This document shows positions 14,797 through 54,257 of a DNA stretch of 64,000 nucleotides, in pieces. The stretch spans positions 11,839 to 75,838 of the forward strand of contig JAGCTE010000035.1 in the NCBI GenBank assembly GCA_017963805.1, given 5' to 3'. The notes under the pieces are model-generated. The model made no database searches. It had not been told where the DNA came from and worked only from the letters and a program-made list of their open reading frames with translations. The number at the start of each line of letters is the position of its first letter. Position 1 is the stretch's first letter. The position numbers and the translations under genes were made by a program. The DNA is from a bacterium. GTDB taxonomy: Bacteria > Auribacterota > UBA3054.

Positions 14797-14805
14797 CGCG
14801 CCAAT

Positions 14806-15576: not shown

Positions 15577-15583
15577 GGGGGCT

Positions 15584-16060
15584 TTATTCCTTTTCTGCTT
15601 TTTCTTCTTTGTTCATCACGACGGCGAAGGCCAGCTCTCCCTCGGCGACTTTCTGGCCGTCGACGGAGGCGACCGCTTTGCATTTGCCCATGGTGGAGCG
15701 CATGGAGATGATGTCGATCCTTAAGTGAAGCTGATCGCCAGGCTGGACGGGCTTTCTGAACTTCACCTTGTCCATCGTGAGGAAGTAGGGGATGAGCCCC
15801 TTGAACCTCGGGTTGGACAAAACGACGATGGCCGCGGCCTGGGCCAAGGATTCCATGATAAGGACGCCCGGCATGACGGGCTGTCCGGGGAAGTGGCCGA
15901 CGAAGAAAGGCTCGTTCATGGTCACGTTCTTGATGGCGTCGACGTAGGTGTCGCAGTCGGTGGCCACGACTCTGTCGACTAAGAGGAAGGGAGGACGGTG
16001 CGGCAATAACGCCATGATGTCCTGGATATTGAGGCTGATAGGAGCTTTGGATTCTTCCAT
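15584..16060 (-). CDS. fabZ: 3-hydroxyacyl-ACP dehydratase
   Basis: [11 protein letters not shown] and [20 protein letters not shown] hotdog-fold motifs. Confidence 0.95.
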
Positions 16061-20059: not shown

Positions 20060-20065
20060 CAGATT

Positions 20066-22590: not shown

Positions 22591-22602
22591 GGAGGGCTGA
22601 CC

Positions 22603-23499: not shown

Positions 23500-23988
23500 A
23501 TGATCGGACACAGCAACAACAGAATAGAGGCGGCTGTCGCCAACGGCACTGCTTACATAAAGATATTCGGGCGCGGGACGTTCCAGACCGTTGCTGATTT
23601 CCGTGATTTTGTCAAAAGGAGCCTCGACGACGGCCTGGCCGTCTTCATCGACCTTTCCAACTGCGAGACGCTCGACTCCACCTTCATAGGGACGCTGGTC
23701 GCGCTTTGCATGAAGTCGAAAAAGGAAGGCGAATGCATGCTGAAGCTTTTCAACGTCTCCGACCATGTCAAGAATATTTTCGCGACCCTCGGCTTGCAGG
23801 GCATCCTTGACGTCAGGGACGCCGTTCCCTCGGAGGGAGGCGACTTTTCGCCCATAGACTGCACGGCTCATGACAAGGTCGAGATCACAGACCTTATGCT
23901 GGACGCGCACCTCACCCTTTCAAGAATAAACGAGCGCAACGCTGTGGAATTCAAAGACGTGGTCGAATTCCTCAAGCAGCAGCGTTGA
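23500..23988 (+). CDS. STAS-domain protein (anti-sigma-factor antagonist-like)
   Basis: The conserved phosphorylatable serine context DLSNCETLDSTFIGTLV matches SpoIIAA/RsbV-type STAS. Confidence 0.72.
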   Translation: MIGHSNNRIEAAVANGTAYIKIFGRGTFQTVADFRDFVKRSLDDGLAVFIDLSNCETLDSTFIGTLVALCMKSKKEGECMLKLFNVSDHVKNIFATLGLQGILDVRDAVPSEGGDFSPIDCTAHDKVEITDLMLDAHLTLSRINERNAVEFKDVVEFLKQQR

Positions 23989-24009
23989 GACGTTCATAGG
24001 GCTTTCGCG

Positions 24010-25467: not shown

Positions 25468-27044
25468 CCCGGACTCTCTTCCTTGAAGCCCTTGAACTGA
25501 AGCGCCTCCAAGATCTGGCGCTCCTCTATTTTTTCGATATTGCCGAGGTCTGCTATCGTTCTTGCCACCCTCAGTATCCTCGTGTAAGTCCTTGCCGACA
25601 GGGCGAGCTTTGTCACGGCGAACCTAAGGGCGGTCTCCGCTTCCTTTGTGAGAGGGCAGAATTTCTGCGCGGCGGCGCTGTTGAGCTGCGCGTTGTTTCT
25701 AAGCCTTGTCTTTTTGTAGCGCTCGAGCTGGATGCTCCTCGCCCTCATGCAGCGCTCCCTTATGCTTTTCGAGCTTTCCGGCGCCTCTTTGCCCGTCAGC
25801 TCCTCATAGGGGACGAAAGGCATCTCGACGTGCATGTCGATGCGGTCCATAAGAGGCCCGGAGACGCGGGCGCGGTAGCTTTCCACGGCGCGGCGGGGGC
25901 AAGTGCATTTCTTGACAGGATGCCCGAGGTACCCGCAGGGGCAGGGGTTCATGGCGGCCACCAGCATAAAGCAGGCCGGGAAGGTCACCGAGCCGGCTAC
26001 TCTCACGATGTTTACGAAACCGTCTTCCAAGGGCTGGCGCAGGGCTTCCAGCACGTTCTTGGCGAACTCCGGGAACTCGTCCAGGAAGAGGACGCCGTTG
26101 TGGGCCAGAGAGACTTCGCCGGGCTCGATCTGAAGCCCGCCGCCGATAAGGCCGGAGAGGGAGACGGAGTGGTGGGGAGACCTGAAGGGACGCCGGATCA
26201 TTTGCCTGATATCCTTGGGGACCAGGCCTTTCGCCGAATAGATCTGCATGCTCTCTATTAGCTCCTCTTCCGAAAGGGGAGGCAGGATGGTCGGCAGCCT
26301 TCTGGCCAGGAGCGTTTTCCCGGAGCCCGGCGGCCCGAAAAGCAAAAGATTGTGGCCGCCGGCGGAGGCGATCTCGGCCGCTCTTCTGGCGGCGAGCTGG
26401 CCTTTGACCTCGGAAAAATCGCAGTCGTAATCGCAGGCCGCGGCTTCCAGGAGATTGCGGTCGAACGCGACGGAAGGGCTTTTCGCCGGCGCAAGGTAAG
26501 CCGCTAGCGCCTCCATGAAATTCCCGGCCGGGATGACGACGAGGTCTTTCACCAGCGAGGCTTCCCTAGAATTGCTTTTGGGGACTATGAGATAGCGGAA
26601 GCCCAGCTTTTTGGCGGCCACCGCGCAGCTGATGACGTTTCTGACGGCGCGCAGGTTTCCGTCCAGCGAGAGTTCGCCTATCGCGGCGATCTTGCTTTCC
26701 GCCGAAGCGGGGTCGAGGTCTTTCTGGTGCCCGGACCAGGCGGCAAGGCAGAGCGCGATGGGAAGGTCGAAAGCCGGCCCGTGCTTTTTAAGGTCCGCGG
26801 GCGCCAGGCTTATGATGATCTCGCCCTTGGGGTAGCGCAATCCTGCGTGCAGCATGGCGCTGCGGACCCTTTCCTTGCTTTCCCTTACGGCGGTGTCGGG
26901 AAGGCCTATGATGGAGGTCGACTGCTTGTCATCCTCCAATTCCAGCCCGTAGTCCGCGTTTTTCCCGTCGAAAACGTTGACTTCGATGGTGACCAGCCGG
27001 GCCTGGGAGCCGTAGGAGGCGAAAGAATAAGCTTTGGTTAACAT
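25464..27044 (-). CDS. comM: YifB/ComM family Mg-chelatase-like AAA+ ATPase
   Basis: Walker A LLLFGPPGSGKTLLARRL, Mg-chelatase-type sensor motifs, and the C-terminal ChlI-like domain. Confidence 0.9.
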   Translation of the reverse strand: MLTKAYSFASYGSQARLVTIEVNVFDGKNADYGLELEDDKQSTSIIGLPDTAVRESKERVRSAMLHAGLRYPKGEIIISLAPADLKKHGPAFDLPIALCLAAWSGHQKDLDPASAESKIAAIGELSLDGNLRAVRNVISCAVAAKKLGFRYLIVPKSNSREASLVKDLVVIPAGNFMEALAAYLAPAKSPSVAFDRNLLEAAACDYDCDFSEVKGQLAARRAAEIASAGGHNLLLFGPPGSGKTLLARRLPTILPPLSEEELIESMQIYSAKGLVPKDIRQMIRRPFRSPHHSVSLSGLIGGGLQIEPGEVSLAHNGVLFLDEFPEFAKNVLEALRQPLEDGFVNIVRVAGSVTFPACFMLVAAMNPCPCGYLGHPVKKCTCPRRAVESYRARVSGPLMDRIDMHVEMPFVPYEELTGKEAPESSKSIRERCMRARSIQLERYKKTRLRNNAQLNSAAAQKFCPLTKEAETALRFAVTKLALSARTYTRILRVARTIADLGNIEKIEERQILEALQFKGFKEESPG

Positions 27045-27155
27045 GTCTCTTTTGTTTTTGGTTGGGGGCAGGCTAGGATAATTTTAAAATTTGAAGGGCC
27101 GGAAGGGAAGGATTTTATGAAACGCTAGCGATCGTGATGGAAACAGGGCGAAGCG

Positions 27156-27184
27156 TTGACACAACCGGCGTTAAATAGTAAAAT
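27156..27184 (+). promoter_or_regulatory. sigma70-like promoter for frr (TTGACA-17-TAAAAT)
   Basis: ttgaca at 27156-27161, a 17-nt spacer, taaaat at 27179-27184, then an RBS aaggag about 35 nt downstream. Confidence 0.5.
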
Positions 27185-27223
27185 TTAATAATAATGTAAA
27201 CCTATACCCTTTAAGGAGTGTCT

Positions 27224-27784
27224 ATGCCTTACAAAGCACAGATCAAAGAGCTGCAGACAAGCATGCAGAAAGCCTTGGACCATTTGACCTACCAGTTCAA
27301 GGAGATCAGGACCGGCAAAGCTTCGCCGGGCCTCGTCGAGGACATCAAGGCCGAATATTACGGCGCCATGACGCCCATCAAAAGTTTGGCCAACATCACT
27401 GTCCCCGAGCCCAGGACGCTCAAGATCGAGCCTTTCGACGTCAACAGCGTCCAGGCCATCTGCCGCGCCATCCAAGCCTCGCCCATCGGGATCACGCCCG
27501 TTGACGACGGCCGCGTGATAAGGCTGCCCATGCCGGAATTGACCGAGGAGCGCCGCCGCGATCTCACCAAGCTGACGAAAAAGTACAGCGAGGAGACGAA
27601 AGTAAACCTGCGCAACCTGCGCCGCGACACCATAGAGAAGCTCAAAAAGATGGAAAAGGACAAAGTCCTGACGGAAGACCAGCGCAAGCAGGGCGAGAAG
27701 AGCGTGCAGACGGAAACCGATAACTTCAGCAAGAAAGTCGATGATCTCGTCAAGGCCAAAGACAACGAGATCATGACGCTGTAA
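27224..27784 (+). CDS. frr: ribosome recycling factor
   Basis: Full-length RRF similarity, 186 aa. ATG 27224 has ideal RBS spacing; the ORF track starts two codons earlier at a GTG. Confidence 0.93.
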   Translation: MPYKAQIKELQTSMQKALDHLTYQFKEIRTGKASPGLVEDIKAEYYGAMTPIKSLANITVPEPRTLKIEPFDVNSVQAICRAIQASPIGITPVDDGRVIRLPMPELTEERRRDLTKLTKKYSEETKVNLRNLRRDTIEKLKKMEKDKVLTEDQRKQGEKSVQTETDNFSKKVDDLVKAKDNEIMTL

Positions 27785-27804
27785 AAAAATAAGGAGTAAA
27801 AATC

Positions 27805-29007
27805 ATGGCATTAAACGTTGAGATCTCTCCCAGAAAGGGAGGAGGACTTGTGGTAGCGCCGAAAGGGCGCCTTGACAGCGTAACGGCTCCCGACTTTGAA
27901 GAGGCTGTTGACGGAATTTTGAAAGACAAGGTGAAGGTCATAATCCTCGACCTTGGCAGCGTTGATTTCCTGTCCAGCGCGGGCATCAGGGTCATCTTCA
28001 AGCTGCAGAAGGGCGTTCTTGGCAACCGCGGCGTAGTTGTAGTTTCCAAGCCGCAGCCGCAGGTCGCCAGGGTGCTTGAAATCGTGCGCGCCATGCCCAA
28101 GGAGCAGATCTTCGAGAATACGGAAGAGGCTGACAAGTACCTCGCGGCCATCCAGGAACAGGAAGTGGAAAGAGTCGCCAGCCAAAAGAGCGCGAACACC
28201 GTCGTCAGCGCGAACCTCAAGATCGAGGTCACCCCGAGAAAAGAAGGCGGCGTGATCATTTCCCCGACCGGACGTCTCGACACCATAACGGCCCCGGAAC
28301 TCGAGGCCGTCGTTGACAAGATCTTGGCGGAGAAGATCTGCATCGTCATCCTGAACATGGAAGGCGTGACTTTCATCAGCAGCGCCGGCATCAGAGTCAT
28401 CTTCAAGCTGCAAAAAGGCGTTCTGAAAGAGAAGGGCGTGGTCATCGTCAGCAAGCCGCAGCCGCAGGTCGCCAGGGTGCTGGAAGTCGTGAGGGCTCTG
28501 CCGAGCGACAAGATCTTCGAAGACATCGAAGCCGCCGACAAGTACCTCGCCATGCTCCAGCAGAAAGAGCTGGAGAAGCTGGCTTCCAAAGCGGTCGAGA
28601 AGATGTCCGTTGAGCCGAAGGCTGTCGAGAACGACAATCTGAAAGTCACCGTCGCGCCCAGGGAACCGAGAGGCTACACCGTCTCCCTCAAGGGCCGCCT
28701 TGACAGCATCACTTCCCCCGACTTCGAGAAGGTCGTCGAAACGATCATTTCCGCGGAAGCCAAGATCATCATCCTCAACCTGGCCGAACTGGTCTTCTTG
28801 AGCAGCGCCGGCATCAGAGTCATCTTCAAGCTCCAGAAAGGCGTCCTGCAGAGGAAGGGCGTGGTCGTCATATCTAAGCCGCAGCCTCAGGTCGCCAAGG
28901 TCATCGAGATCATCCGCGCCCTGCCGGCCGAGCAGGTCTTCGCCAGCGACGAGGAAGCCGACGCCTATTTGGCCAAGATCCAGCGCCAGGAACTCGGAGA
29001 AGTGTAA
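27805..29007 (+). CDS. triple tandem STAS-domain protein (three anti-sigma-antagonist-like repeats in one polypeptide)
   Basis: Three ~133-aa repeats, each with the motif GRLDS(V/I)T(A/S)PDFE...II(L/I)(D/N)L...F(L/I)SSAGIRVIFKLQKGVL...VVVSKPQPQVA(R/K)V(L/I)E(I/V)VRA(M/L)P. Each repeat keeps the SSAG serine. Confidence 0.8.
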   Translation: MALNVEISPRKGGGLVVAPKGRLDSVTAPDFEEAVDGILKDKVKVIILDLGSVDFLSSAGIRVIFKLQKGVLGNRGVVVVSKPQPQVARVLEIVRAMPKEQIFENTEEADKYLAAIQEQEVERVASQKSANTVVSANLKIEVTPRKEGGVIISPTGRLDTITAPELEAVVDKILAEKICIVILNMEGVTFISSAGIRVIFKLQKGVLKEKGVVIVSKPQPQVARVLEVVRALPSDKIFEDIEAADKYLAMLQQKELEKLASKAVEKMSVEPKAVENDNLKVTVAPREPRGYTVSLKGRLDSITSPDFEKVVETIISAEAKIIILNLAELVFLSSAGIRVIFKLQKGVLQRKGVVVISKPQPQVAKVIEIIRALPAEQVFASDEEADAYLAKIQRQELGEV

Positions 29008-30928: not shown

Positions 30929-33900
30929 ATGAATGACAGTACTCTGAAAAGACCTTCGGGGGTGGCTTTGCTGGCTGTGCTGACCGTTCTGACGGTCCTC
31001 TCCCTTTTAGCAGCCACCTTCGCTTCCATGATGACCATGGAGGAGCAGGCGGGAAGCATCAGTCTTAACCGCTCGCAGTCCGATATGCTCGCCCAATCCG
31101 CCATCGAGCACGTTTACGGCCTGCTGCGCCAGGACTCCATCGACAGCCCGGAATACGACGGCTACGACGAATCCTGGTCCCAGACTTTCAAGCCGCGCCA
31201 GGGTGAGGAGCGCGTAAACGTCGAGGGCGACAAGGGCGGCGATTACGCCTGGGCCCGCTGGATCTACGTCAGGGACAACACCGGGCGCCCGATCGGCCGC
31301 TACGCGGTCATGGTCGAGGACGAGCACGCCAAGATCAACCTTCACACGGCGACCGCTCTCGGCTCCAAGCAGCAGAACGAAGGCTTCGGAACTTTCGAAG
31401 CGATGCTGACGGACGGCGACAAAAGGGGACTGCCTTTGACCATAGAAGCCGGCAAGCGCATTTTGAAATACCGCTACGGCAGGGACGAAAGGCCCGGCCA
31501 GGCCAACGTTGACGACAACCTTACCGTCACGCAGTACGGCAGCGACTCCATCGACAACAACGCCAACGGACGCTACGACGAAGACGGCGAAGGCGTGGAC
31601 GAGCCCGAGGAATACAATCCCAGCCGCCTTGTCTGGGACGACATGGCCTTCCAGTCCCTTAGGGAAGCCTTGGCGGTCGCCATGGGCGGCGAACCGACCA
31701 GCCTTTCCCAGGTCAACGCCTTCAAGCACCTCGCCACGCTTTGGAACACTTCGCAGGAGCTCTACTATGAAAAGTCCGCGAAGGCCCTGAGGCGCTCCCT
31801 TGACATAAACCACGCGGAACTAAAGCAGCTCAGGCGCGCCCTGAGGAACGCCAACAACGAGTCCGCTTTCGAGCCTTCCTCCTCCAAAATGCGCGCCCTG
31901 CTCGTCAACCTTTTGGACTACACCGACGAGAACCATACGCTCACGACCGTCGACAGCACCTACGGCGTGGAGTCGATCTGCTTCAACGAGATCATGGCGC
32001 ACGACGGCAGCTGGATCCGTGAGACCGACTGGTGCGGCTGGGGATTCCCGAGCCAATCCGGAAGCGGCGCCTCCGTCCCGGAGCACGTGCTTTCCGCCAA
32101 CCAGTTCTACGGCCACCGCTACAAGGACATGGGCAGCGTTTTCCGCTGGCGTTTCAGCAATGTCAAAAAACGGGGCAACGACTGGGAACTGAAGATCGAA
32201 AGGCCGCGCCGCCAGGCCCCGCGCTTCGACGAGTTTGTCAACACTGAAGTGAAAGGCTGGTATGAGGACCAGTGGAAGGGGGCGACCTGCATAGTCTACA
32301 ACGCCAAGAGCGAGAGCAAGGGTTTCTCCATTACCAGAAGCCAGGGCGGAAAAGGGCGCGAGTTCACCATAAAGGGCTACAGCGAAGGCAACAAATTCAT
32401 GGAGGACGTTTCCTCCAACCTCGTCAACGCCACCGTCAAGCTATACAGCACCTGGACGCACGACGGCGCCATGTGGTGCGACGACCCGATGCAGACGGAG
32501 ATCTTCTACTTCCGCCCGCTGAACCGCAAGCAGGAGAAGTATTATTACCGCGTCTACAACGCGAGCCAGGCTTTCATTCCCTCCATAGGCTACGGAAAAT
32601 CCAGCGTCAGGGAAATGGACATGGACGGCATTCCCGCCCGCTACAGCGTCCAGCAGGAGGAAAAGGACAAGAAGAACCACTACCTCCTGAAATACCCCTA
32701 CAAGGAAGGCAAGGCCCAGAAGCCTTCCAAGGAAGGCTACATCGAGGTGGTCGTGACTTCTTCCAAGAAATGCCGCCACTCCGGTTCCGGCAGGAAAGGC
32801 AAGAATATCAACTACAGCGACGCCATGTATTTCATCAGGCCCGATATCGTCGAGCTCATCAACATCTCCTCGTACCCCATAAGCCTGCGCAACTGGCAGG
32901 TCGTGGTCAACACAGGTTTGGAAGCCGAGCTTCTTGCCACCGTTGACAAGGCGGACCACTACAGCAAGGCCCGCAGCGGCTTCTACGAAGACCCGAACCC
33001 GATAATAGAGCCGAACGGATATTTTTACCTGACCAACAACAGGGAGATCTTCGACATCGAATACTGCGGCGGCAACGGCAACTACGGCCGCAGCCAGAAG
33101 ACGGTCATCCCGGTCTACGAGCTTCCCGACGAGGACTGGGGCATCCTCTACGACGTGACGAAGGTCAAGGGCGACTACATCACGGTCTCCGGCGCCAACT
33201 GGCATCACGACCAGCTGGAAGGCGAGCTTATCGAGTTCGTGTCCGACCGCCAGCCCACCGCCAAGGCGGATATTCCCAACGGCATGATCAAGTATGTTTA
33301 CGGCAACAACAGCAACAGGCTTGACCTTAACGGCAGCGACCCGGCCGGCAGCGGATTGAAAGTCGGCGACAAGATCAGGGTCAGGGGCCTTCCGCGCCAG
33401 GGCGGTTTCGTCTCCTTCACGCTTAAGAACGAATACGGCCAGGTCGCGGCCAGAACTACGGAATACGGCTCCGTCGACGAAGAGGAATTCGGATATTCAA
33501 CCGAAAAGGACGACCCGGCCCACTACACCTGGAAGAAACACTCGAAGCCGACTTTCGGCGGCACCCTAAGGGAAGCCGAGAGCCGCAGGATGAGAAGCCA
33601 GTCGAAGAACAACCAGACGCACATCAAGAACGCCGGCATGGCGAACATCTCCGAAATACAGAAGATCAAGACGGGCGACGACTGGGAGAACGTCGGCGGC
33701 GGCTCCAGGTCCGATCTGAAGACCATGAAAGCGGTCGGCAAATATTTCACGACCGCCGGCATCAGGCTCGACGCGGAGGAGGAAGGCGTTCATCTTTCCG
33801 GCTGGGCTCCCGCTTTCGGAAAGGTAGTTTCCGCGAACGGCGACGTTATGTCCATAGAGGGCGTCAGCTGGGAACCTGACACCTGGAAAGGGCACACGCT

Positions 33901-34882
33901 GCGCGTCATGACAGGCGCCCAGAGAGAGGAGAAGATCCCAATCGTCAGCAGCTCCAAGACCGGCATTACCGTCGACGGCCTGACCTCTCCTTCCGAACTG
34001 CAGCTGAAGCTCAAGAAAGGCGACATGGTGAGCGTCGGCCCGGGCTACGCCACGCCCTTTTACTACGCCACGAAAGACGGCGAGGCCGGCGAATGGGAAT
34101 GGCGTGACAAAGGCCTTGAGAAGGCCGACTACGGGCTTTACATCTTCGGGTTGAACGACGCCATCGACACGACGGAATTCCTCGAGGAGAACCACAACGC
34201 CGAGATGGAAGTCTTCATCTTCAACTACGAGACCGGCGAATACGACGCCCTGCCTCTCGGTTCCGACGAACTGAGGAACGCCGCGGACGATCCCTATCTC
34301 GTCGGCTCCAACAGGAAGCGCATCCGCTACGACAAGAACGACAGGGCTTACTGCGGCATTATCCACGCCTCTCACATCTCCGCCAAAGGCGGCATCAAAG
34401 TGAAGATAATACCCCATAACCTTTCCGGCGTCGACTCCTCCGGCAAGGCCTGGCTCGATTACGTTTACCTTGCGCCGGGCCCGACGGCCGGCCGCATAAA
34501 CGTCAACACCGCCGAGGAACGCATCCTGACCTCTCTTAAAGGCATCTCGCCGGCTCTGGCCCGCAACATCGCCAGAGGCATCGACAATTACGGCAGCGCT
34601 TCTTTGAAACCTTATAAGAACTCCACGGATCTTCTGAACGTCAAGGGCTTCACGCCCGAGATCTACGGCCCGATCGCCAACCTTGTGACCACGAGGAGCG
34701 ACCAGTTCAGGGTCCGCGTCATAACCCAGACCATCACGAAACTCTCCAAGGACGACTTCTTCAACGAGAATGCCGGCGACAGGATCACCTCGCAGTCCGC
34801 CATCGACATGATAGTCGACCGCAGCGACGCCCTTGGCGAGGACGGAGCAAATTTCCGCGTTATTTCCCGCGAATTCGAATAA
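30929..34882 (+). CDS. giant GspK/T2SS-K-like pseudopilin-family protein (1317 aa)
   Basis: Prepilin-like N-terminus (KRPSGVALLAVLTVLTVLSLLAATFA, no Glu5, as in GspK). Early DEHAKINLHTA motif (GspK DExxKINxN-like). C-terminal GRINVNTAEERILTSLKGISPALARNIARGI helix-hairpin-helix region. A ~900-aa insert of unknown domains lies between. A promoter-like TGGTAAAAT sits upstream. Confidence 0.7.
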   Translation: MNDSTLKRPSGVALLAVLTVLTVLSLLAATFASMMTMEEQAGSISLNRSQSDMLAQSAIEHVYGLLRQDSIDSPEYDGYDESWSQTFKPRQGEERVNVEGDKGGDYAWARWIYVRDNTGRPIGRYAVMVEDEHAKINLHTATALGSKQQNEGFGTFEAMLTDGDKRGLPLTIEAGKRILKYRYGRDERPGQANVDDNLTVTQYGSDSIDNNANGRYDEDGEGVDEPEEYNPSRLVWDDMAFQSLREALAVAMGGEPTSLSQVNAFKHLATLWNTSQELYYEKSAKALRRSLDINHAELKQLRRALRNANNESAFEPSSSKMRALLVNLLDYTDENHTLTTVDSTYGVESICFNEIMAHDGSWIRETDWCGWGFPSQSGSGASVPEHVLSANQFYGHRYKDMGSVFRWRFSNVKKRGNDWELKIERPRRQAPRFDEFVNTEVKGWYEDQWKGATCIVYNAKSESKGFSITRSQGGKGREFTIKGYSEGNKFMEDVSSNLVNATVKLYSTWTHDGAMWCDDPMQTEIFYFRPLNRKQEKYYYRVYNASQAFIPSIGYGKSSVREMDMDGIPARYSVQQEEKDKKNHYLLKYPYKEGKAQKPSKEGYIEVVVTSSKKCRHSGSGRKGKNINYSDAMYFIRPDIVELINISSYPISLRNWQVVVNTGLEAELLATVDKADHYSKARSGFYEDPNPIIEPNGYFYLTNNREIFDIEYCGGNGNYGRSQKTVIPVYELPDEDWGILYDVTKVKGDYITVSGANWHHDQLEGELIEFVSDRQPTAKADIPNGMIKYVYGNNSNRLDLNGSDPAGSGLKVGDKIRVRGLPRQGGFVSFTLKNEYGQVAARTTEYGSVDEEEFGYSTEKDDPAHYTWKKHSKPTFGGTLREAESRRMRSQSKNNQTHIKNAGMANISEIQKIKTGDDWENVGGGSRSDLKTMKAVGKYFTTAGIRLDAEEEGVHLSGWAPAFGKVVSANGDVMSIEGVSWEPDTWKGHTLRVMTGAQREEKIPIVSSSKTGITVDGLTSPSELQLKLKKGDMVSVGPGYATPFYYATKDGEAGEWEWRDKGLEKADYGLYIFGLNDAIDTTEFLEENHNAEMEVFIFNYETGEYDALPLGSDELRNAADDPYLVGSNRKRIRYDKNDRAYCGIIHASHISAKGGIKVKIIPHNLSGVDSSGKAWLDYVYLAPGPTAGRINVNTAEERILTSLKGISPALARNIARGIDNYGSASLKPYKNSTDLLNVKGFTPEIYGPIANLVTTRSDQFRVRVITQTITKLSKDDFFNENAGDRITSQSAIDMIVDRSDALGEDGANFRVISREFE

Positions 34883-34901
34883 CCAACCTTTATCTTACAC
34901 G

Positions 34902-37028
34902 ATGAAAAAACTCGGCCTTTTATTTCTGCTGATATTTTTTGCCAGTTTCAATTCCTACGCCCTGCGTATCTACGGCCTTTACATGGCCGAGGCGAACGTC
35001 AGGGACGACGGCAACCGTTACTACCAGGACACGATGTTCTCGACTTATCCTCCGAGCGCCGCGTTCAACGGCTGCGTGGACGTACTTGTCATGAAAGGCT
35101 GGTATTGTTTCGGCAACAACTGGGAATACGAACCCGTTGACAGCAACGTCCTCGACAAAGGACAGAAGGCCCAGTACGAAAACATGGGCAAGTGCGGCGG
35201 CGTAACGATAAAGAGGCTGGATCCCAACGTCTACGATCAGCTGAACGGCATGACGGGGCAAACTGCCGAAGCCGGCACTCCGGAAGGCTACATCGGCGCC
35301 GCCAACATGCGCCGCACCCTGCTCTTCAAAAACGCCGTCCTTGAAGAGGGGACGAACTACTTCACGATCGTCTGCCCCCAGGCCAACGAGCTGATGTACA
35401 GCGCCATGGTCGGCTTGTATCTTTCTGAAAAAGACACCTGGAGCACGGGCGTCATCCCGCCGGAAGGCACGGAGCCCGACCTTTGCGCCAAGGAAGCCGG
35501 CGCCGGCACCCAGGACATGGAAGGGGAGTACGTCTGCGGCGCTCCCAATCCCAGGAAGGACGTGTCGTATTTCAACCAGGCGAACATAAAGATGGAGCAC
35601 CCGACGCTCTACTGCGTGAAAGGCGATTACAGGATAAGCATTCCCTTCTTCTACATGGCCGGCACCAACGGCGACGAAGTGAATCCCGACGGCCTTACCT
35701 CGCCTCCGTCTCCCGGCTGGGTGGCGGAAGGCAGCCTTGATCCCGGCTGGGCGCTTGCCCACACCTCCGGAAACGAGGTCGCCTACCTTGCCGTAGTCGT
35801 CTCCAAAGAGAGCACGGTTCCTTCCCTTTCGACGCCTTCCGTCGTGATCCCGCCCCTGAGCTCCGACGGCTGCGTTCTTATGGAGAACCTCGGCGCCGGC
35901 AGTTTCAGCTACACCGCCAGCACCACGAGCAGCTGGCTCACGCTGGACAGCGAGACCGCTTCCGGCAGCGTCAGCATGCAGCAAAAGATCCAATTCACCG
36001 TCAACAGAAACGGCCTCGCTCCCGGCCGCTATGTCAGCACGATCGACATTGACCTCGGCAGTTTCGGAGTGATGACGGCCAAGGTGACGATGATCGTGGA
36101 GAAGCCCAAGACCGGCGCCGTGCGTTTGAAAGGATTGTACATTATGAGCAACGACGGCGAGACGCCCTATTACCAGGACACCATGATCAAGTCGCTGACG
36201 CCCTCTTACAATTTCGACGGCGGCTGCATGGATATCCTTCTCGCGAACGGGATCTACCTTTTCGGCAACGAGGCTGATTTCGAACTCTGCCCCTATTACG
36301 ATTACTTGGTCGCGAACGCGCTGGACCCCGGACGCCCCGCCGCCTATGACGAGGCCGGCAGCTTCCAGGTCACGAACGTTGTCTATTGCCTGCAGCCCGA
36401 GAGATACGACCTGATCAACCAGGCTGTCGACAACGGCGAGCATCCCACCGCCTCCTCGATCTCCGAATACGTGAAGTTTTCCGGCCTTACCAAAAAGGAG
36501 CTCGACTGCTACCTTAATGTTGGCACCAACCGTTTCACGCTCATTCTTCCGGAAGCCAGCGAATTCGAATCGGAAGAGATGCAGCTGGGCCTTTTCCTTG
36601 GAGAGAGGGTCGCGAGCGGCGCGAAACCCGATCTGGCGGCCAGCGACAGCGAGATACAGTTCGACGCCGAGGGCAAGCTTTACGCCACCTACACCACGGA
36701 AGACCGCACTTACAAATACCCCTTGAACGAATCGGATGTTTTCACCAGATCCACGCTTCAGTGCGACGTTGGCGACTATCATCTTACGCTTACGAAATTC
36801 TTCATCGCGGGCGTCAACAACGAATTCATGAATCCCAGGGGCATGACGAGCCCGGCTGCTCCCGGCTACGTCGCTTCTGGCGGCGACACGACCACGGCCT
36901 GGCCGGTGCACGCTTCGCCGAAGACGGCGCTGGGATATTTTGAAGTGGTGGTGACGGGCGTGCCGGAGCCGGCGGCGCTGGGGTTGCTGGCGCTTGTGGC
37001 GCTGGCGGCTTTCCTCCGCAGGAAGTAA
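34902..37028 (+). CDS. PEP-CTERM sorting-domain surface protein with internal duplication and a BACON-like beta domain
   Basis: ATG 34902. Signal peptide MKKLGLLFLLIFFASFNSYA. Two copies of a ~300-aa module (LRIYGLYMAE...YYQDTM... and VRLKGLYIMS...YYQDTM...). C-terminus VTGVPEPAALGLLALVALAAFLRRK is a canonical PEP-CTERM. Confidence 0.75.
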   Translation: MKKLGLLFLLIFFASFNSYALRIYGLYMAEANVRDDGNRYYQDTMFSTYPPSAAFNGCVDVLVMKGWYCFGNNWEYEPVDSNVLDKGQKAQYENMGKCGGVTIKRLDPNVYDQLNGMTGQTAEAGTPEGYIGAANMRRTLLFKNAVLEEGTNYFTIVCPQANELMYSAMVGLYLSEKDTWSTGVIPPEGTEPDLCAKEAGAGTQDMEGEYVCGAPNPRKDVSYFNQANIKMEHPTLYCVKGDYRISIPFFYMAGTNGDEVNPDGLTSPPSPGWVAEGSLDPGWALAHTSGNEVAYLAVVVSKESTVPSLSTPSVVIPPLSSDGCVLMENLGAGSFSYTASTTSSWLTLDSETASGSVSMQQKIQFTVNRNGLAPGRYVSTIDIDLGSFGVMTAKVTMIVEKPKTGAVRLKGLYIMSNDGETPYYQDTMIKSLTPSYNFDGGCMDILLANGIYLFGNEADFELCPYYDYLVANALDPGRPAAYDEAGSFQVTNVVYCLQPERYDLINQAVDNGEHPTASSISEYVKFSGLTKKELDCYLNVGTNRFTLILPEASEFESEEMQLGLFLGERVASGAKPDLAASDSEIQFDAEGKLYATYTTEDRTYKYPLNESDVFTRSTLQCDVGDYHLTLTKFFIAGVNNEFMNPRGMTSPAAPGYVASGGDTTTAWPVHASPKTALGYFEVVVTGVPEPAALGLLALVALAAFLRRK

Positions 37029-37056
37029 GCGCCGCTTAGCTTTTGCTCAGAAAAAA

Positions 37057-37111
37057 ACGACCCCTCTTGATTTTACTTCGTAACAAAATCTTGAGGGGGT
37101 TGTTTTTTTCT
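37057..37111 (+). terminator. rho-independent terminator after the PEP-CTERM gene
   Basis: acgacccctcttgatttt-acttcgtaac-aaaatcttgagggggttgttttttt: a 14-bp stem with one 2-nt mismatch, then a T-run. Confidence 0.55.
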
Positions 37112-37124
37112 TCGCTCACTAACG

Positions 37125-37333
37125 CGATTGTTGTCTCGGACGAAAAGTTATGTTCCCTTGGCGAACCGCATTCGCTGAGTTCGCTTACGGGAGCATAACT
37201 TTTTTCGTCCTCGACAAAACTCAAGTTGGACGCTGGAAAGCCGCAGTGCGAGCTAGGCACATACCCCTAAGCGAACTCACGGAGGACGCAAATCAAGGCC
37301 ATGCGCGCGTAGTCCGTGAGCGAGGGGTATGTG
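37125..37333. repeat. two adjacent long imperfect palindromes (hairpin I 37125-37204; hairpin II 37238-37333)
   Basis: Hairpin II has perfect 21-bp arms (gcgagctaggcacatacccct / aggggtatgtgcctagctcgc), extended by ctcacgga / tccgtgag. Hairpin I pairs cggacgaaaagttatg with cataacttttttcgtcc and has a nested gcgaac/gttcgc pair. Confidence 0.6.
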
Positions 37334-37424
37334 CCTAGCTCGCGCTGTAAGTGTTACTCAGCGAAGCCTGTTTGCCAAGGGCGCATGCCTTTTGCGAAGC
37401 GGAAAAACAATTGAGCGGAAAGGC

Positions 37425-39092
37425 TTACTTCAGCACTGCGCCTTGGCTCGCGCTCGTCGCATGCTTTTGATAGCGCGCCATCCACCCGAAGTTCAGGCGC
37501 GGTTCGGGCGGCTGCCATTCGGCTTTGCGCTTAGAGATCTCTTCAGGGGAGAGCTCAGCTTCCAGCTTCTGCGCGTTGATGTCTATGCTGATCATGTCGC
37601 CTTCTTTCAGAAGGCCGATGAGCCCGCCCGAGGCCGCTTCCGGGCTTACGTGCCCTATGCAGGCGCCTCTCGTGCCGCCGGAGAAGCGGCCGTCGGTGAT
37701 CAAAGCCACTTTGTCGCCCAGACCCTGGCCCATGATGTAAGAGGTGGGGGCGAGCATTTCCTGCATGCCGGGGCCGCCTTTGGGGCCTTCGTAGCGGATG
37801 ACGACGACGTCGCCTGGTTTAACTTTGCCGGCCAAAATTCCTTCGCAGGCTTCTTCCTGGGATTCGAAGATGACGGCCGGGCCGCGGTGCGCCATCATTT
37901 TGGGATCGACGCCCACGGATTTGACGACGGCGCCTTCGGGGGCGAGGTTGCCCCAGAGGACGGTGAGCCCTCCTCTTTTCGCGTAAGCGTTGGAGAGTTC
38001 CCTGATGCAGGCTTTGTCCTTGCTTTCCTTGCCCTTTATGTTTTCGCCCAGGGTCTTGCCGGTGACGGTCGGGCAGTCGAGGTTGAGCGAGCCTTCTATT
38101 TTGCTGATCTCGCAAAGGATCGCGGAGACTCCGCCGGCAGCGTCCACGTCCTCCATGTGATACGAGCAGGAGGGACTGACTTTGCAGATGGTGGGGACCC
38201 TTTTGCTGACCTCGTCGATGCGCTTGAGGTCGAAGCCTAAGCCCGCTTCCTTGGCGATGGCAAGGGAGTGCAGGATGGTGTTCGAGGAGCCGCCCATGGC
38301 CATGTCGAGGGTAAGGGCGTTCTCTAGGGAAGCGTCGGTTATTATGTCCTTGGGGCGCAAGTTTTCCTTTACCATTTCCACGATGCGGCGCCCGGCGGCT
38401 TTCCAAAGCTCCTTCCTTTCAGGGTAGACGGCGGGGATGGAGCCGTTGCCGGGGAGCGCGATGCCTAAGGCTTCGCAAAGGCAGTTCATGGAGTTGGCTG
38501 TGAACATGCCGGAGCAGGAGCCGACGCCCGGGCAGGATTCGCATTCGACTTCCTCGAGCTGGGCGTCATTTATGATATTCTGGCTGCGGGCGCCGACGGC
38601 CTCGAAGATGCTGATGAGGTCGAGGGCTTTCTTTCCGTCCTTACTGTGGCCGGCCAGCATAGGTCCTCCGGAAGCGAAGATGGTCGGGATGTTGACTCTC
38701 AAAATGCCCATCAGCATGCCGGGGACGATCTTATCGCAGTTGGGAATGCAAATAACGCCGTCGAAGCAGTGCGCTCTTAACATCGTTTCTACGGAGTCGG
38801 CTATGATCTCCCTGGAGGGCAGGGAGTATTTCATGCCCTCGTGCCCCATGGCGATGCCGTCGCAGACGCCTATGGTGTTGAATTCGAAGGGGACGCCGCC
38901 GGCTTCCTTGATCGCTTCCTTTACTATTTTGCCGACTTCCTGAAGATGGGCGTGCCCGGGGATGATGCCGACGTAAGAATTGCAGACGGCGATGAAGGGC
39001 TTCTTTAAGTCCTCGCGGCTGACGCCGCAGGCATTGAAGAGCGCGCGGTGCGGGGCGCGTTCCAGACCGACTTTCACAGAATCGCTTCTCAT
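37425..39092 (-). CDS. ilvD: dihydroxy-acid dehydratase
   Basis: Full-length IlvD/EDD family ([24 protein letters not shown], Fe-S cysteine ligands); 555 aa. Confidence 0.95.
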
Positions 39093-39239
39093 AATTTTTC
39101 CTGACTGGGTTGATTTGCAGTCTGATCAAGGGAGATTTTACCATAAATCATCCCGTCCCTTTTGACGGGGTGTCTGTTCGTTGAATAAAAAAGGTGATTA
39201 TTGTAAAATTTAAAGGTTAACACTAGGATTTTTTGGAGT

Positions 39240-42200
39240 ATGAAACGAGTTTTCGGAAATACATCCGCCCCTAGGGGCGTGGCGCTTTTGATGGTACTGA
39301 CGGTCCTTACCGTCCTTTCGATCCTTTCCGCGACTTTCGCGACTTTCATCGGCTTGGAGAGCCAGTCCGGCGCCATAAGCGTCGGGCAGACGCAGTCGGA
39401 CATGCTCGCTCAGTCCGCCCTGCAGCACGCTTACGGCCTTCTCAGGGAAGACTATTACAATTCCTCGGCCTACGACGATTACAGCGAATCCTGGTCCCAG
39501 ACCTTCAAGCCCAAAAAAGGGGACCAGGCCGTCGATATGGACGGAACTTACGGCGACAAGACGCACATGTCGCGCTGGATCTACGTCAGGGACGCCAACG
39601 AAAGGATAATCGGCCGTTACGCCGTCATGGTCGAGGACGAGCTCGCGAAGATCAACGTCAACACCGCGACCGCCCTGAGCAGGAAAGAGCAGAACGAGGG
39701 CTTCGGCACTTTCGAAGTGATGCTGACCGGCGAGAACGGCAAAGCCGGCCTGCCGATCTCCCCCGAGGCTGGCAAGAACATTCTTTCCTACCGCTACGGC
39801 CGCGACCAGAAACCCGGCCAGGCGAACGTCGACGACAACCTGAACGCCTCCCAGTACTCTTCGGACGAGATAGACAACAACGCCAACCTTCTCGTGGACG
39901 AGAGGGACGAGGGCGTGGACGAGCCGGAGGAATACAACCCCGACCATCTGGTCTGGGACGACAAGGCTTTCCTTAACATGAGGGAAGTCATTTCGCTTAT
40001 CGCTCCCAACAAGCAGAACCTCAGCCGTTCTCTGGAGAACGCCATCAAGCACTACGCGACCATCACCTCCCGCTCCCAGGAAAGCTATTTCGACGAGACG
40101 TCCGGAAAGGTTTTCCGCCAGCTGAACATCAACAACTCCGACATGAAGCAGCTGAGAAGGGTGATGCGAAACTCCAATCTGGAATACAATTTCGAGAATT
40201 CTTCGACCGCCCTGCGCGAACTGGTCGTCAACATGGCGGACTACACCGACGAGAACCACGTTTTGTCCACCATCGAGAGCACGTACGGCATCGAGGCCGT
40301 CTGCTTCAACGAGATCATGGCGCATGACGGCAGCTGGATCGTGGAGACGGACCACCAGGGCTACGGCAGGAAAGACGAGAACAGCTACCACGTGATGTTC
40401 GCCAACCGCATTTACTCCGGCAACTGGGACTACGACCGCACGGAGTTCATCCCCGGCTCCATGCGCACATACTGGCGCATAAAGGATGTCAGGACGTCCG
40501 GGAACAGGGCGGAAATAAAACTTGACAATCCCATGTACACGAGCGGCGACTACAACACCTTCATGAAAGCGGAGGTCGACGGCTGGCTGAAGGACCAGTG
40601 GAAGAACGCCACGTGCATTATTCATCACGTGACAGGGCAAAGGTCCGCCGTGAGCAAGGGATTTGAGATCGAAGGCAACTCCGCCGGCAATTCCAAGAGC
40701 ATAACCATAAGGGTGTCGGGCGGTCTGGAATCATTTTTGGACGGCGTCAAGACCAACACCGCCAACGACAGGATAAGCATCTGGTCGCACTGGATGTGCT
40801 CAGCGGCTGTCTGGACCGACCGCAAGGAGCAGACGGGCCTTTTCTACACCAGGCCGAACACTCCGAAACAGGAAAAATTCTACTACCTCATCTACAGCGC
40901 CAACCAGGCTTTCAAAAACAACTGGTGCGGTTTCAAGCGCTCCGACCTGAGGGAAATGGACATGGACGGAATTCCTTCCAAGTATTCCGTCACGCAGGAG
41001 GACAAGGATAAACGCGGCAACTACCTGCTGCGCTACAAGTACAAGGACGGCAAGCCGCAGAAACCGAATCACAACGGCTTCCTTTCGCTTTATCTGACTT
41101 CTTCCAGAAGGTGCAAGAAGTCCGGCGCGAACCAGTCCGGCAAAAACGTCAACAGCAGCGACGCGCTCTACTTTTTCCGCCCCGACATCGTCGAGCTCAT
41201 CAACATCAGCTCCGCCCCGATCTCCTTGCGGAACTGGTCGGTCGTGGTCAACACCGGCGTGGAGTCGTACGACCTTGCGCGGATAGACAAGGCCGAGCAT
41301 TACAGCAAGGCTTACGGCGGCTATTACGACGATCCCAACCCCCTGATCGCCCCCGGCGGCTATTTCTACCTCACTTCCAACAAGCAGATCTTCGACATCG
41401 AATACTGCAAGGGAACGGGCGGCTACGGCCACAACAAGGAGAACGAGATCCCGGTCTTTGAGCTTCCCGCGGACGACTGGGGCATCCTGTACGACGTGAC
41501 AAAAGTTTCCGGCTACAACTACGGGCACAGCTACATTACCGTGACGGGCGCCGACTGGAAGAAGGACCAGCTTAAGGGCGAGATCATCGAGTTCGTCTCC
41601 ACGCGTCACCCCAGAGGCGGCTACGACGCGCCGAACGGCATGTTCAAATACGTTTACAACAACACTTCGCACGTCATCGACATCGGCGTGGGCGACGCTG
41701 TCAACAGCGGTTTGGAAGCCGGCGACCAGATCCGCGTGAGGGGCCTGCCGCGCCAGGGCGGTTTCGTCTCCTTCACCTTGAAGAACGAGTACGGCCAGAT
41801 CGCCGCCCGCACGACGGAATACGGCAGCCTTACCAAGGACGAGATCGGTTTCTCAACGGAAAAATCCGACCCGGCCCACTATATCTGGCACTCTGTGAGC
41901 GCCCCGACTTTCGGCGGCACAATAGACAAGGCCAAGAGCCGCGCTTTCAGGAAGCACAGCTTAACGCACATCAAGAACAACCATCTTGCCAACGTCGGCG
42001 AAGTTCTCAACGTAAGGACGGCCGACTCCTGGTCGACCGTCGGCACGAAAGGCCGCGGCGGCGTAAAGACCCTGAAGGCCTTGAGCAAATATTTCACCAC
42101 TTCCGGTATCCGCCTTGACAGCGAAGAGGAAGGCGTTCACCAGAGCGGCTGGAAAGCGGCTTTCGGCGAAGTGAGCCACGCCAACGGCGACAACATCAGC

Positions 42201-43232
42201 GTCAAGGAAGCCGCCTGGTCGCCGAACGCCTGGACGGGACAGACGATGCGCGTTCTCTCCGGACCTTTCAAGGGCGAGAAGATCCCGATCAAGTCCAACA
42301 CCGGCAACGGCGTTTTGGTGGAAGGGCTCTCGGCTCCCAACGAGAAGCAATTGAGGCTCAAGAAAGGCGACCTTATCAGCGTCGGCCCGGGATACGCGAC
42401 GGCCATGTACTACACCGACAAGGAAGGCGACGAGGGAATTTGGGAATGGGAGAACAAGGGGCTTCTGAAGAGCGACTACGGTCTCTACGTCTTCGGGCTC
42501 AACGACTCCATAAAGACCACCGAGTTCCTCGAGGAGAACCACAACGCCACAATAGAAGTTTACGCTTACAATTTCGCCAAAGGCGAATACGACAGGCTTC
42601 CTCTGCCGGACGACAGGATGCGCATCACAAGCGACAATCCCTACCTTATGGGCAGCCAGACCCAGCGCTTGCAGATCGACAAGAACGACAGAGTCTACTG
42701 CGGCCTGATCCACGCCGCGCACATTTCCCCGAGGGGCGGCATCCGCCTTAAGATCGTTCCCCACAACCTGAGAGGCCAGGAAACTTCCGGCAAAGCCTGG
42801 TTCGACTACGCTTTCCTCGCTCCCGGACAGACTAGCGGGAAAATAAACATCAACACCGCCACTCCGCGCGTTTTAGCCGCGCTTAAGGGCGTGACGCCGG
42901 CTATCGCGGCGGCCATCGAGAAAGGCTTAGACCGTTCCGGCAACAAGATCAAGCCCTACAAGAACACCGCGGACATCCTCGACATCCAGGGCATGACGCC
43001 GGCGATCTTCAGCGAGATCTCCAACCTTATCACCGTCAGGAGCGACCAGTACCGCATCAAGGTCATGGCCGATTCCGTTGAGAAAGTGACGAACGACCCG
43101 CAGTTCGACGAAGCGAAGGGCGACAAAGTCATCGCGCGTTCCATCATGGACGTCATCGTCGACAGAAGCGACCTGGCGCAAAGCGCGGAAGACAACGGCA
43201 AGGCCCAATTTAAGGTGATTTCCAAGGAATAG
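39240..43232 (+). CDS. giant GspK/T2SS-K-like pseudopilin-family protein (1330 aa), paralog of 30929..34882
   Basis: N-terminus APRGVALLMVLTVLTVLSILSATFA. DELAKINVNTA motif. C-terminal GKININTATPRVLAALKGVTPAIAAAIEKGL. About 60-65% identity to the first copy along the whole length. TTGTAAAAT -10-like upstream. Confidence 0.7.
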   Translation: MKRVFGNTSAPRGVALLMVLTVLTVLSILSATFATFIGLESQSGAISVGQTQSDMLAQSALQHAYGLLREDYYNSSAYDDYSESWSQTFKPKKGDQAVDMDGTYGDKTHMSRWIYVRDANERIIGRYAVMVEDELAKINVNTATALSRKEQNEGFGTFEVMLTGENGKAGLPISPEAGKNILSYRYGRDQKPGQANVDDNLNASQYSSDEIDNNANLLVDERDEGVDEPEEYNPDHLVWDDKAFLNMREVISLIAPNKQNLSRSLENAIKHYATITSRSQESYFDETSGKVFRQLNINNSDMKQLRRVMRNSNLEYNFENSSTALRELVVNMADYTDENHVLSTIESTYGIEAVCFNEIMAHDGSWIVETDHQGYGRKDENSYHVMFANRIYSGNWDYDRTEFIPGSMRTYWRIKDVRTSGNRAEIKLDNPMYTSGDYNTFMKAEVDGWLKDQWKNATCIIHHVTGQRSAVSKGFEIEGNSAGNSKSITIRVSGGLESFLDGVKTNTANDRISIWSHWMCSAAVWTDRKEQTGLFYTRPNTPKQEKFYYLIYSANQAFKNNWCGFKRSDLREMDMDGIPSKYSVTQEDKDKRGNYLLRYKYKDGKPQKPNHNGFLSLYLTSSRRCKKSGANQSGKNVNSSDALYFFRPDIVELINISSAPISLRNWSVVVNTGVESYDLARIDKAEHYSKAYGGYYDDPNPLIAPGGYFYLTSNKQIFDIEYCKGTGGYGHNKENEIPVFELPADDWGILYDVTKVSGYNYGHSYITVTGADWKKDQLKGEIIEFVSTRHPRGGYDAPNGMFKYVYNNTSHVIDIGVGDAVNSGLEAGDQIRVRGLPRQGGFVSFTLKNEYGQIAARTTEYGSLTKDEIGFSTEKSDPAHYIWHSVSAPTFGGTIDKAKSRAFRKHSLTHIKNNHLANVGEVLNVRTADSWSTVGTKGRGGVKTLKALSKYFTTSGIRLDSEEEGVHQSGWKAAFGEVSHANGDNISVKEAAWSPNAWTGQTMRVLSGPFKGEKIPIKSNTGNGVLVEGLSAPNEKQLRLKKGDLISVGPGYATAMYYTDKEGDEGIWEWENKGLLKSDYGLYVFGLNDSIKTTEFLEENHNATIEVYAYNFAKGEYDRLPLPDDRMRITSDNPYLMGSQTQRLQIDKNDRVYCGLIHAAHISPRGGIRLKIVPHNLRGQETSGKAWFDYAFLAPGQTSGKININTATPRVLAALKGVTPAIAAAIEKGLDRSGNKIKPYKNTADILDIQGMTPAIFSEISNLITVRSDQYRIKVMADSVEKVTNDPQFDEAKGDKVIARSIMDVIVDRSDLAQSAEDNGKAQFKVISKE

Positions 43233-49579: not shown

Positions 49580-49610
49580 TTTGAATAATAATTCATAAGG
49601 AGATAAGAAA

Positions 49611-51302: not shown

Positions 51303-51326
51303 GACATAAGGAACCATCGCTGAAAA

Positions 51327-51361
51327 GACGGCCGACCGCTTTTGCGGCCGGCCTTTTTTTG
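51327..51361 (+). terminator. GC-rich hairpin terminator (family member 1)
   Basis: gacggccgaccgc-tttt-gcggccggcc followed by a T7 run. Confidence 0.65.
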
Positions 51362-51403
51362 TTAAAATATAAGCGTATCATTACAATCCACCCAGGGAAA
51401 GAT

Positions 51404-54232: not shown

Positions 54233-54257
54233 TAAATAATACACGGTGGGTGAAAAC

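Follow-up and report, generated by a model that had tools for sequence, protein, structure and literature searches.

The stretch of DNA considered here, hereafter referred to as the window, covers 64,000 nucleotides (positions 11,839 to 75,838 of the forward strand of the 125-kb contig JAGCTE010000035.1, metagenome assembly GCA_017963805.1) and originates from an uncultivated rumen bacterium of the UBA3054 lineage, which belongs to the phylum Auribacterota in the PVC group and has been reported from the ruminant gut and from digesters (PMC12057145). Its plus strand carries two intact open reading frames (ORFs), gA and gB, lying exactly where an earlier sequence-only reading had placed them and encoding giant paralogues that resemble GspK, a type II secretion system (T2SS) minor pseudopilin. 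By BLASTP, the two proteins align over their full length with 55% identity and 74% similarity, a lower identity than the 60-65% previously estimated. In comparison with orthologues from other rumen metagenome-assembled genomes (MAGs), at a dS of about 0.8, the ratio of nonsynonymous to synonymous substitutions (dN/dS) of the two genes is 0.05-0.19 (0.055-0.19 for gA and 0.07-0.12 for gB), indicating purifying selection. Scans for sigma-70-like promoters and for terminators gave results at or near chance level. On balance, and with little more than even confidence, we regard gA and gB as members of a lineage-restricted family of GspK-class minor pseudopilins, which has three or more paralogues in each genome and whose products would act as interchangeable giant binding subunits at the tip of a fibre, the corresponding machine being encoded elsewhere.

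The resemblance to GspK starts at the N-terminus. GspK is devoid of the Glu at position 5 and occupies the uppermost place in the GspH-I-J-K tip complex, which nucleates and caps the pseudopilus (PMC6211770). In gA, the leader MNDSTLKRPSG precedes VALLA, that is to say V-A-L-L at the head of a hydrophobic helix, and in gB, VALLM comes directly after MKRVFGNTSAPRG; Glu is absent at +5 in the two cases. A basic leader ending in Gly and followed by a helix without Glu+5, as expected of a GspK, is therefore found in both proteins. The family was examined in the same way with 83 unique N-termini, which had been chosen by a motif requiring Gly, Ala at +2 and Leu, Ile, Val or Met at +3, the other positions being left unconstrained. 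At these unconstrained positions, Val or Ile occupies +1 while Ala, Met, Thr or Ser, and never Glu, occupies +5, and both Leu+10 and Phe+20 within the N-terminal helix are invariant. The prepilin-like N-terminus with a Gly and no Glu5, initially noted in gA and gB, is hence shared by the 83 family sequences.

Profile models point in the same direction, with scores that stay under the curated cutoffs. The NCBIfam model T2SS_GspK (NF037980), whose cutoff is 130 bits, matches the N-terminal ~150 residues of gA with 56.2 bits (E 3.8e-15) and of gB with 63.9 bits (E 2e-17), residues 12-152 of the latter corresponding to profile positions 2-115. The same model matches 22/22 aligned family members, with a best E of 1e-17 that is still below the model cutoff. 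Pfam T2SSK (PF03934) gives 12.7 and 17.4 bits for gA and gB against a cutoff of 24.2; Pfam scans returned no match to PF21687 (T2SSK_1st) in either protein, and Pfam and NCBIfam scans no match to N_methyl, so that the expectation of above-threshold T2SSK and N_methyl matches was not borne out. The sole above-threshold Pfam match in the two proteins is HHH_3 at the C-terminus, which reaches 32.8 bits in gA and 33.8 bits in gB for a cutoff of 27. This helix-hairpin-helix (HhH) follows the late GRINVNTA / GKININTA motif and, like the early VEDE(H/L)AKIN(L/V)xTA motif, it is present in both proteins as the sequence-only reading had described. Finally, sequence searches of the PDB with the profiles of the family and of the Omnitrophota proteins introduced below matched the HhH motif only (ComEA, EEPD1, and GspK 5vtm at E ~0.7-1), and are uninformative for the N-domain because of this restriction.

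The closest relatives of the giants are Omnitrophota proteins of ~980-1060 aa (for example P0047, P0048, and P0109), which are named GspK/PulK by both NCBI and JGI. Both P0047 and P0048 score above the Pfam threshold for T2SSK, P0048 passing that of T2SSK_1st too, and match the NCBIfam GspK model with E values of 3e-27 and 5e-24, respectively. The operons of these two proteins contain a PilN-like gene and two secretins, to which the P0048 operon adds GspJ-like and prepilin genes upstream. Collinear BLASTP matches link gB residues 10-348 to P0047 with 29% identity (E 7e-32), and gB residues 1200-1309 to P0047 residues 917-1019 (E 6e-8), while hhalign aligns the giant family with the Omnitrophota family from end to end over 951 columns (probability 100%, E 5.5e-63). 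Owing to this collinearity and end-to-end alignment, the window proteins are full-length homologues of a machine-encoded GspK, and the bulk of what appears as an insert in the giants already existed in the shorter Omnitrophota-type GspK. The GspK architecture first proposed for gA and gB is thus upheld by the significant NF037980 E-values and by the alignment with the Omnitrophota GspK, although no curated cutoff is reached.

As a separate observation on these Omnitrophota loci, the secretin genes of L004 and of the P0047 contig are consecutive and come behind those for the long GspK and the PilN-like protein, in an unusual double-secretin layout in which a protein of 762-811 aa is followed by one of 527-546 aa with an STN domain.

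Between the conserved ends of the GspK frame, both giants do contain a large insert, whose size, previously put at ~900 aa, is ~850-1000 aa depending on the frame end that is chosen. The gB protein was modelled as two overlapping pieces (models m32c900d6cefa and m827d4851eaef), namely residues 1-1200 (pLDDT 75) and residues 625-1330 (pLDDT 76). In these models, the insert is almost wholly made of beta structure, with predicted pLDDT values of 80-93. Foldseek searches against the PDB with the two models retrieved generic beta-sandwiches (best E 4e-5) and no catalytic fold. At least one jelly-roll resembling the carbohydrate-binding modules (CBMs) CBM6/35/36 lies within gB residues 625-1330, the fold searches giving no coordinates for it. 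In addition to the lamin tail domain (LTD)-like sandwich of gB (Table 1), a sub-threshold LTD match is present at residues 639-746 of gA, and LTD is matched in 20/22 aligned family members. The insert is therefore predicted, on the basis of these models, to be a chain of non-catalytic beta-sandwich modules comprising a fast-diverging module, an LTD and CBM-like jelly-rolls. It had been suggested to be either an adhesin or an enzyme: modules of a binding type were indeed found, whereas the presence of an enzyme was rejected since neither the models nor the fold search disclosed any catalytic fold or domain.

The fast-diverging module, at residues 361-640, displays a family conservation of 0.39 versus ~0.6 elsewhere, a gA/gB identity of 41%, and the highest dN/dS of the protein, up to ~0.30. 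As the dip in conservation is confined to these residues, it fits a constant scaffold bearing one specificity-determining module. Regarding the frame itself, an alpha1-like helix (residues 15-74) and a ComEA-like HhH are seen in the models, the split pieces leave the pilin sheet incomplete, and residues 75-350 of gB are modelled with low confidence (pLDDT 40-70 in the GspK-like region).

Table 1. Coordinates of gA, gB, the regions of the gB protein, the genes lying between gA and gB, and a tandem array of family members on another contig.
Feature	Position	Strand	Description
gA	30929..34882	+	1317-aa giant GspK-like minor pseudopilin paralogue; intact ORF
PEP-CTERM surface protein gene	34902..37028	+	708 aa, with a Sec signal, an internal duplication and a BACON-like middle part
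ilvD	37425-39092	minus	Between the PEP-CTERM gene and gB
gB	39240..43232	+	1330-aa giant GspK-like minor pseudopilin paralogue; intact ORF
gB residues 1-13, leader (MKRVFGNTSAPRG)	39240..39278	+	Short, basic, class-III-signal-like; ends in conserved Gly
gB residues 14-74	39279..39461	+	Single long alpha-helix, first part hydrophobic, pilin alpha1-like; modelled helix 15-74
gB residues 75-350	39462..40289	+	GspK N-domain-like; VEDELAKINVNTA motif, acidic Ca-site-like run (198-232), NxxDYTDENH motif
gB residues 361-640	40320..41159	+	Variable beta-rich module, candidate specificity determinant; pLDDT 85-93
gB residues 639-754	41154..41501	+	LTD-like beta-sandwich; Pfam LTD E 4e-5, sub-threshold; collinear with Omnitrophota GspK LTD
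gB residues 755-1190	41502..42809	+	Additional conserved beta modules, including TTEFLEENHNA motif
gB residues 1199-1264	42834..43031	+	ININTA motif and helix-hairpin-helix domain of the ComEA type (C-terminal HhH of GspK)
gB residues 1265-1330	43032..43229	+	Terminal beta-strands, aligned with the Omnitrophota GspK C-terminal end; hhalign covers the last columns
L028 tandem array	CAZCLS010000020.1 909-17698		Giant GspK-like genes, head to tail

The family is rare: when the insert (residues 350-1190) was used in a HMMER search against 1.84 billion protein representatives, only 59 family proteins were identified, nearly all of 1300-1400 aa or fragments of such proteins; the overall length range of the family is 1300-1430 aa, and one member is already named GspK by NCBI. 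Among the GTDB species representatives, 167 matches were distributed over ~15 MAGs, comprising rumen RGIG bins (85-98% identical to gB), UBP3_UBA3054, bins labelled 'bacterium', and some Chlamydiota-labelled ones. The giant family is confined to UBA3054/Auribacterota-like MAGs. The number of copies per genome ranges from 3 in rumen genomes to more than 15 in one MAG, at least 15 giant copies or fragments being counted in SRP178699_co1_462, and head-to-tail tandem arrays of 2-4 giants occur in 8 loci (L028, L026, L022, L039, L067, L117, L131, and L132).

The genomic context of the family was sampled over ~1.7 Mb of flanks (at most 10 kb each) around ~129 family genes from GTDB and JGI loci. Beside these genes, no ORF with a prepilin motif, no Walker A of the GspE/PilB type, and nothing homologous to the secretins or to the PilN-like or GspJ-like proteins encoded in the reference operons was detected. 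In the window and the 8 kb past its end, no pilus or T2SS gene emerged either from the precomputed Pfam assignments, from Pfam scans of unannotated ORFs or from motif scans. The lack of a machine in the 64 kb, as originally remarked, is thereby confirmed and extends to the whole family, and neither in the window nor in the ~129 family loci is a giant gene placed beside gspI/gspJ in a gsp or pseudopilin operon, the usual setting of a GspK. More distant and shorter GspK-like matches (L143-L150 and L153) are located directly downstream of 1-4 prepilin genes, with an ATPase nearby as well in L144. Since these distant genes do adjoin prepilin genes, the orphan status is a trait of the giant family. 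A search for the machine in giant-carrying genomes through relatives of P0047 returned Omnitrophota proteins only.

The genes that do adjoin the giants include a number of surface proteins. PEP-CTERM-tailed ORFs account for 32/161 ORFs at gene distance 1 versus 12/218 at distance 5 or more (odds ratio 4.3; p 3e-5, relatedness uncorrected), and 31/32 of the adjacent ones are on the strand of the giant. An adjacent PEP-CTERM gene is found in 13/40 orthologue groups and belongs to one of eight unrelated neighbour families, and the gaps between giants and neighbouring genes go down to 8-20 nt. Besides, the neighbours comprise LamG/CBM proteins, an EEP nuclease with an LTD and a PEP-CTERM tail, and an S8 protease, and those of gB and of the third rumen paralogue are housekeeping genes (ilvD, gpmI, and sugar kinases).

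Two arrangements seen in these flanks may be recorded in their own right. In a Chlamydiae-labelled MAG (L038, QMOL01000026.1), four tandem genes coding for PL8 polysaccharide lyases are situated directly downstream of a giant, at positions 7257-15886. Beside one giant subfamily (L047, L050, L051, L052, and L043), a trio of genes recurs, consisting of a PEP-CTERM protein of cluster c28 and two EEP nucleases, one of 600-735 aa with an LTD and a PEP-CTERM tail and the other of 320-335 aa, and a link of this trio to extracellular DNA is possible.

According to the reading that we favour, the N-terminal helix would insert each giant into the inner membrane and a prepilin peptidase would cleave the protein after the conserved Gly. 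The giant would then dock on a GspI/GspJ-type base made by a type IV filament or T2SS-like machine whose genes lie in another part of the genome, and cap the fibre in the manner of GspK, so that the insert would be displayed as a binding head at the tip. Its ligands would probably be rumen polysaccharide or other polymers, or the neighbouring exoproteins, and the paralogues would represent interchangeable tips of differing specificity. We infer this fibre-tip function from the homology to GspK, the prepilin-type N-terminus, the modular insert, the purifying selection and the family traits described above. In the literature, the T2SS tip complex has been implicated in substrate binding (PMC6211770), and some Auribacterota MAGs are reported to encode type IV pili (PMC9324843).

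Several observations nevertheless weigh against such a function. The scores of gA and gB fall under every curated GspK cutoff, the split models do not capture the whole pilin beta-sheet and have a low pLDDT in the GspK-like region, GspK structures are absent from the top fold matches of either gB model, and ligand binding by the CBM-like modules is putative. Moreover, it is unusual for a GspK to lie entirely apart from pseudopilin genes, and neither a machine, nor a prepilin peptidase, nor a GspI/J partner was seen within the accessible flanks of at most 10 kb. As for the PEP-CTERM neighbourhood, collapsing the neighbours to families in the first data set reduces it to 6/51 versus 10/179 (p 0.13), and the association is only suggestive because the enrichment is lost in this way.

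In this context, other roles have to be weighed against that of a fibre-tip binding subunit. Instead of an extended pilus, the giants could cap a periplasmic pseudopilus of the T2SS, as alternatives to one another in the GspK position. Their insert would recognise the exoproteins of the neighbouring genes and drive these across the secretin, thereby linking the T2SS to exosortase-sorted surface proteins. Such an adaptor role would account for the same-strand enrichment of PEP-CTERM genes next to giants, for gaps to neighbours as short as 8-20 nt and for the typical secreted enzymes found there (EEP nuclease with LTD, PL8 lyases, S8 protease, LamG/CBM proteins), it agrees with the reported binding of substrates by the T2SS tip complex (PMC6211770), and the variable module could set the cargo specificity. 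We consider it rather unlikely, however, given that gB and the third rumen paralogue adjoin housekeeping genes, that an adjacent PEP-CTERM gene occurs in just 13/40 orthologue groups, and that the enrichment is not robust to the collapse of neighbour families; the interaction is putative, and PEP-CTERM genes may simply cluster in surface-protein islands. Quite improbable in our opinion is the more elaborate proposal that the giants are swappable caps for one filament or T2SS machine, each being genetically paired with the exoproteins that it handles, and that the variable module recognises PEP-CTERM or enzyme cargo and so couples export to exosortase-sorted proteins. If true, it would supply PEP-CTERM proteins with a route across the outer membrane, none of which has, to our knowledge, been defined so far.

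Conversely, the GspK frame might be a relic whose helix has become a mere membrane anchor, the giants being envelope binding proteins that work independently of any filament. The absence of linkage to prepilin or machine genes in the ~1.7 Mb of flanks, the scores under the curated GspK cutoffs and a copy number that is atypically high for tip pseudopilins are all in line with this idea. Nonetheless, the near-invariant Gly / V-I / A / L site together with L+10 and F+20 exceeds the constraint needed by an anchor, the C-terminal HhH and strands of GspK are kept in all members, and the frame regions are under purifying selection, which makes such a retirement distinctly unlikely. The fact that HHH_3 outscores T2SSK, that extracellular EEP nucleases with an LTD adjoin several paralogue loci and that some JGI annotations read 'ComE-like DNA-binding protein' could also evoke a receptor for extracellular DNA, sited either on the envelope or at the tip of a pilus, in which the ComEA-type HhH and the LTD would bind DNA to be taken up or used as a nutrient. 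The HhH motif is nonetheless standard in GspK, being part of the Pfam T2SSK model, and we know of no DNA role for it in GspK; in addition, ComEA models are far under their cutoff (17 bits versus 152 for TIGR01259), the conserved mass mostly consists of beta-sandwich/CBM-like modules, and nuclease neighbours are limited to 4-5 loci. A DNA receptor is accordingly very unlikely.

Within the window, the start of the PEP-CTERM protein is 34902, that is 20 nt past the gA stop, and its gene is probably co-transcribed with gA, in keeping with the same-strand PEP-CTERM neighbours seen across the family. The tail of this protein (...VPEPAALGLLALVALAAFLRRK) comprises the PEP motif, the hydrophobic helix and the basic tail, and scores 19.4 bits with TIGR02595 (cutoff 16) and a borderline 20.6 bits with PF07589 (cutoff 20.7). 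The two giants had been described as bracketing this gene and ilvD, an arrangement that does exist in the window but is not conserved, since the orthologues of MAG RGIG7520 are on different contigs. A functional gA-PEP-CTERM-ilvD-gB unit is thus rejected, ilvD being an opposite-strand housekeeping gene and the arrangement being broken in RGIG7520. Housekeeping genes, including lpxA/C/D, fabZ, skp, nadE, gpmI, murJ, and pfk, are found in the remainder of the window and in the following 8 kb.

Some other loci of the window deserve mention. A module of the partner-switching type (23500-29007), just upstream of nadE and gA, encodes a STAS protein at 23500-23988, a GAF-SpoIIE phosphatase at 24010-25467 and, at 27805-29007, an unusual protein of 400 aa that consists of three STAS repeats. 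It is preceded by an uncharacterised conserved cassette adjoining the skp/lpx cluster (19289-23439), in which a DUF6754 membrane protein gene is followed by three same-strand genes without family assignment (546, 293, and 278 aa). Towards the start of the window, the 3272-7158 region contains a tyrosine recombinase/integrase (3272-4060) directly upstream of a 1006-aa glycosyltransferase with one GT2 and two GT4 domains, beside which a 568-aa methyltransferase is encoded. Downstream of gB, three tandem secreted FGE-sulfatase (SUMF1-like) genes (546, 563, and ~281-336 aa) form a small paralogous array at 47939-52249, with a 75-aa FGE fragment further along. Finally, the GC content falls to 0.49-0.51 between 52000 and 56000, compared to ~0.57 elsewhere in the window, where genes at 52454-53797 and 54246-55646 encode an AAA_14/DUF4143 ATPase and a Schlafen-AlbA_2/HATPase_c_4 protein, respectively; the region looks like a small acquired island, possibly related to defence.

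Regarding the significance of the giants, the cap contacts of GspK-type proteins are central to the choice of substrate or surface by the T2SS and related type IV filaments. In the present family, the cap frame bears binding-type modules of ~110 kDa, in many copies per genome, with one module diversified and the machine genes located elsewhere. If loaded on a fibre, these proteins would show that exchangeable heads for fibres occur naturally, here in barely studied polymer degraders of the rumen and digesters (UBA3054/Auribacterota), and a handle on plant-fibre attachment or on the export of surface enzymes by such bacteria. If not, they would clearly illustrate how a pilin frame can be co-opted to anchor surface proteins of large size. 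Besides, the fact that they recur next to PEP-CTERM proteins hints at a connection of two envelope systems not known to be linked.

The arrangement had been put forward as undescribed, which is too strong a claim because the curated libraries already hold oversized GspK-like proteins (TIGR02600 and the Omnitrophota GspK/PulK) and NCBI names one family member GspK. In the literature, no paper was found on the giant family, on its orphan multi-copy organisation or on its PEP-CTERM neighbourhood, nor was anything found that joins GspK with PEP-CTERM, that deals with Verru_Chthon or that concerns a minor pseudopilin with a lamin tail domain. With canonical GspK (EpsK/XcpX/PulK; NF037980, PF03934, PF21687; PDB 3CI0 and 5VTM), the giants share the prepilin-like N-terminus without Glu5, the N-domain profile similarity (E 1e-17), the near-C-terminal HhH domain and an acidic Ca-site-like run, GspK being known to bind calcium (PMC6211770). 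They differ from it in being ~4 times larger, with ~1000 aa of beta modules inserted within the frame, in scoring below the curated cutoffs, in not following gspI/gspJ, and in occurring as several paralogues per genome. The long GspK of Omnitrophota is closer, as it has in common with them the RG-I/V-ALL N-terminus, the DE..K.N.N motif, the acidic run, the mid-protein LTD, and a C-terminal end formed by the HhH and the last strands. This protein is ~300-350 aa shorter, single-copy, above the T2SSK threshold and encoded within a PilN-like/secretin operon, whereas the window family is orphan and multi-copy, carries the extra variable module and belongs to a different phylum-level lineage.

A protein of comparable size is described by TIGR02600 (Verru_Chthon cassette protein A, profile length 1296), which is also of ~1300 aa, has GspK-like N- and C-terminal segments and comes from a PVC-group lineage. 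This profile matches gA and gB with 47.6 and 26.5 bits for a cutoff of 332.3, in the terminal segments only, and it gives sub-threshold N-terminal matches in 19/22 family members, P0038 also matching at profile positions 1200-1253. With scores of 16-48 bits against a cutoff of 332, the inserts of TIGR02600 and of the giants are unrelated. The Verru_Chthon protein A is accompanied by three prepilin-type proteins (B, C, and D) in a cassette of four genes, whereas motif scans revealed no such prepilin-type partners in the flanks of giant-family members. ComEA, for its part, is a small protein whose model TIGR01259 scores 14.5 and 17.4 bits with gA and gB for a cutoff of 152, and it has the HhH fold alone in common with the giants. 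Finally, modular type IV pilins and tip adhesins are represented by PilB/PilC of S. sanguinis, ComZ of Thermus, and PilY1 with a PilX-type minor pilin, PilY1 itself not being a pilin. Searches turned up no sequence or fold match to these proteins, no comparison aimed at them having been made. The concept of a pilin-type frame with a binding module grafted on it, which a type IV filament displays along its length or at its tip, is nonetheless shared, with the difference that the module of the giants is much larger and is inserted inside the GspK frame instead of being appended to it.

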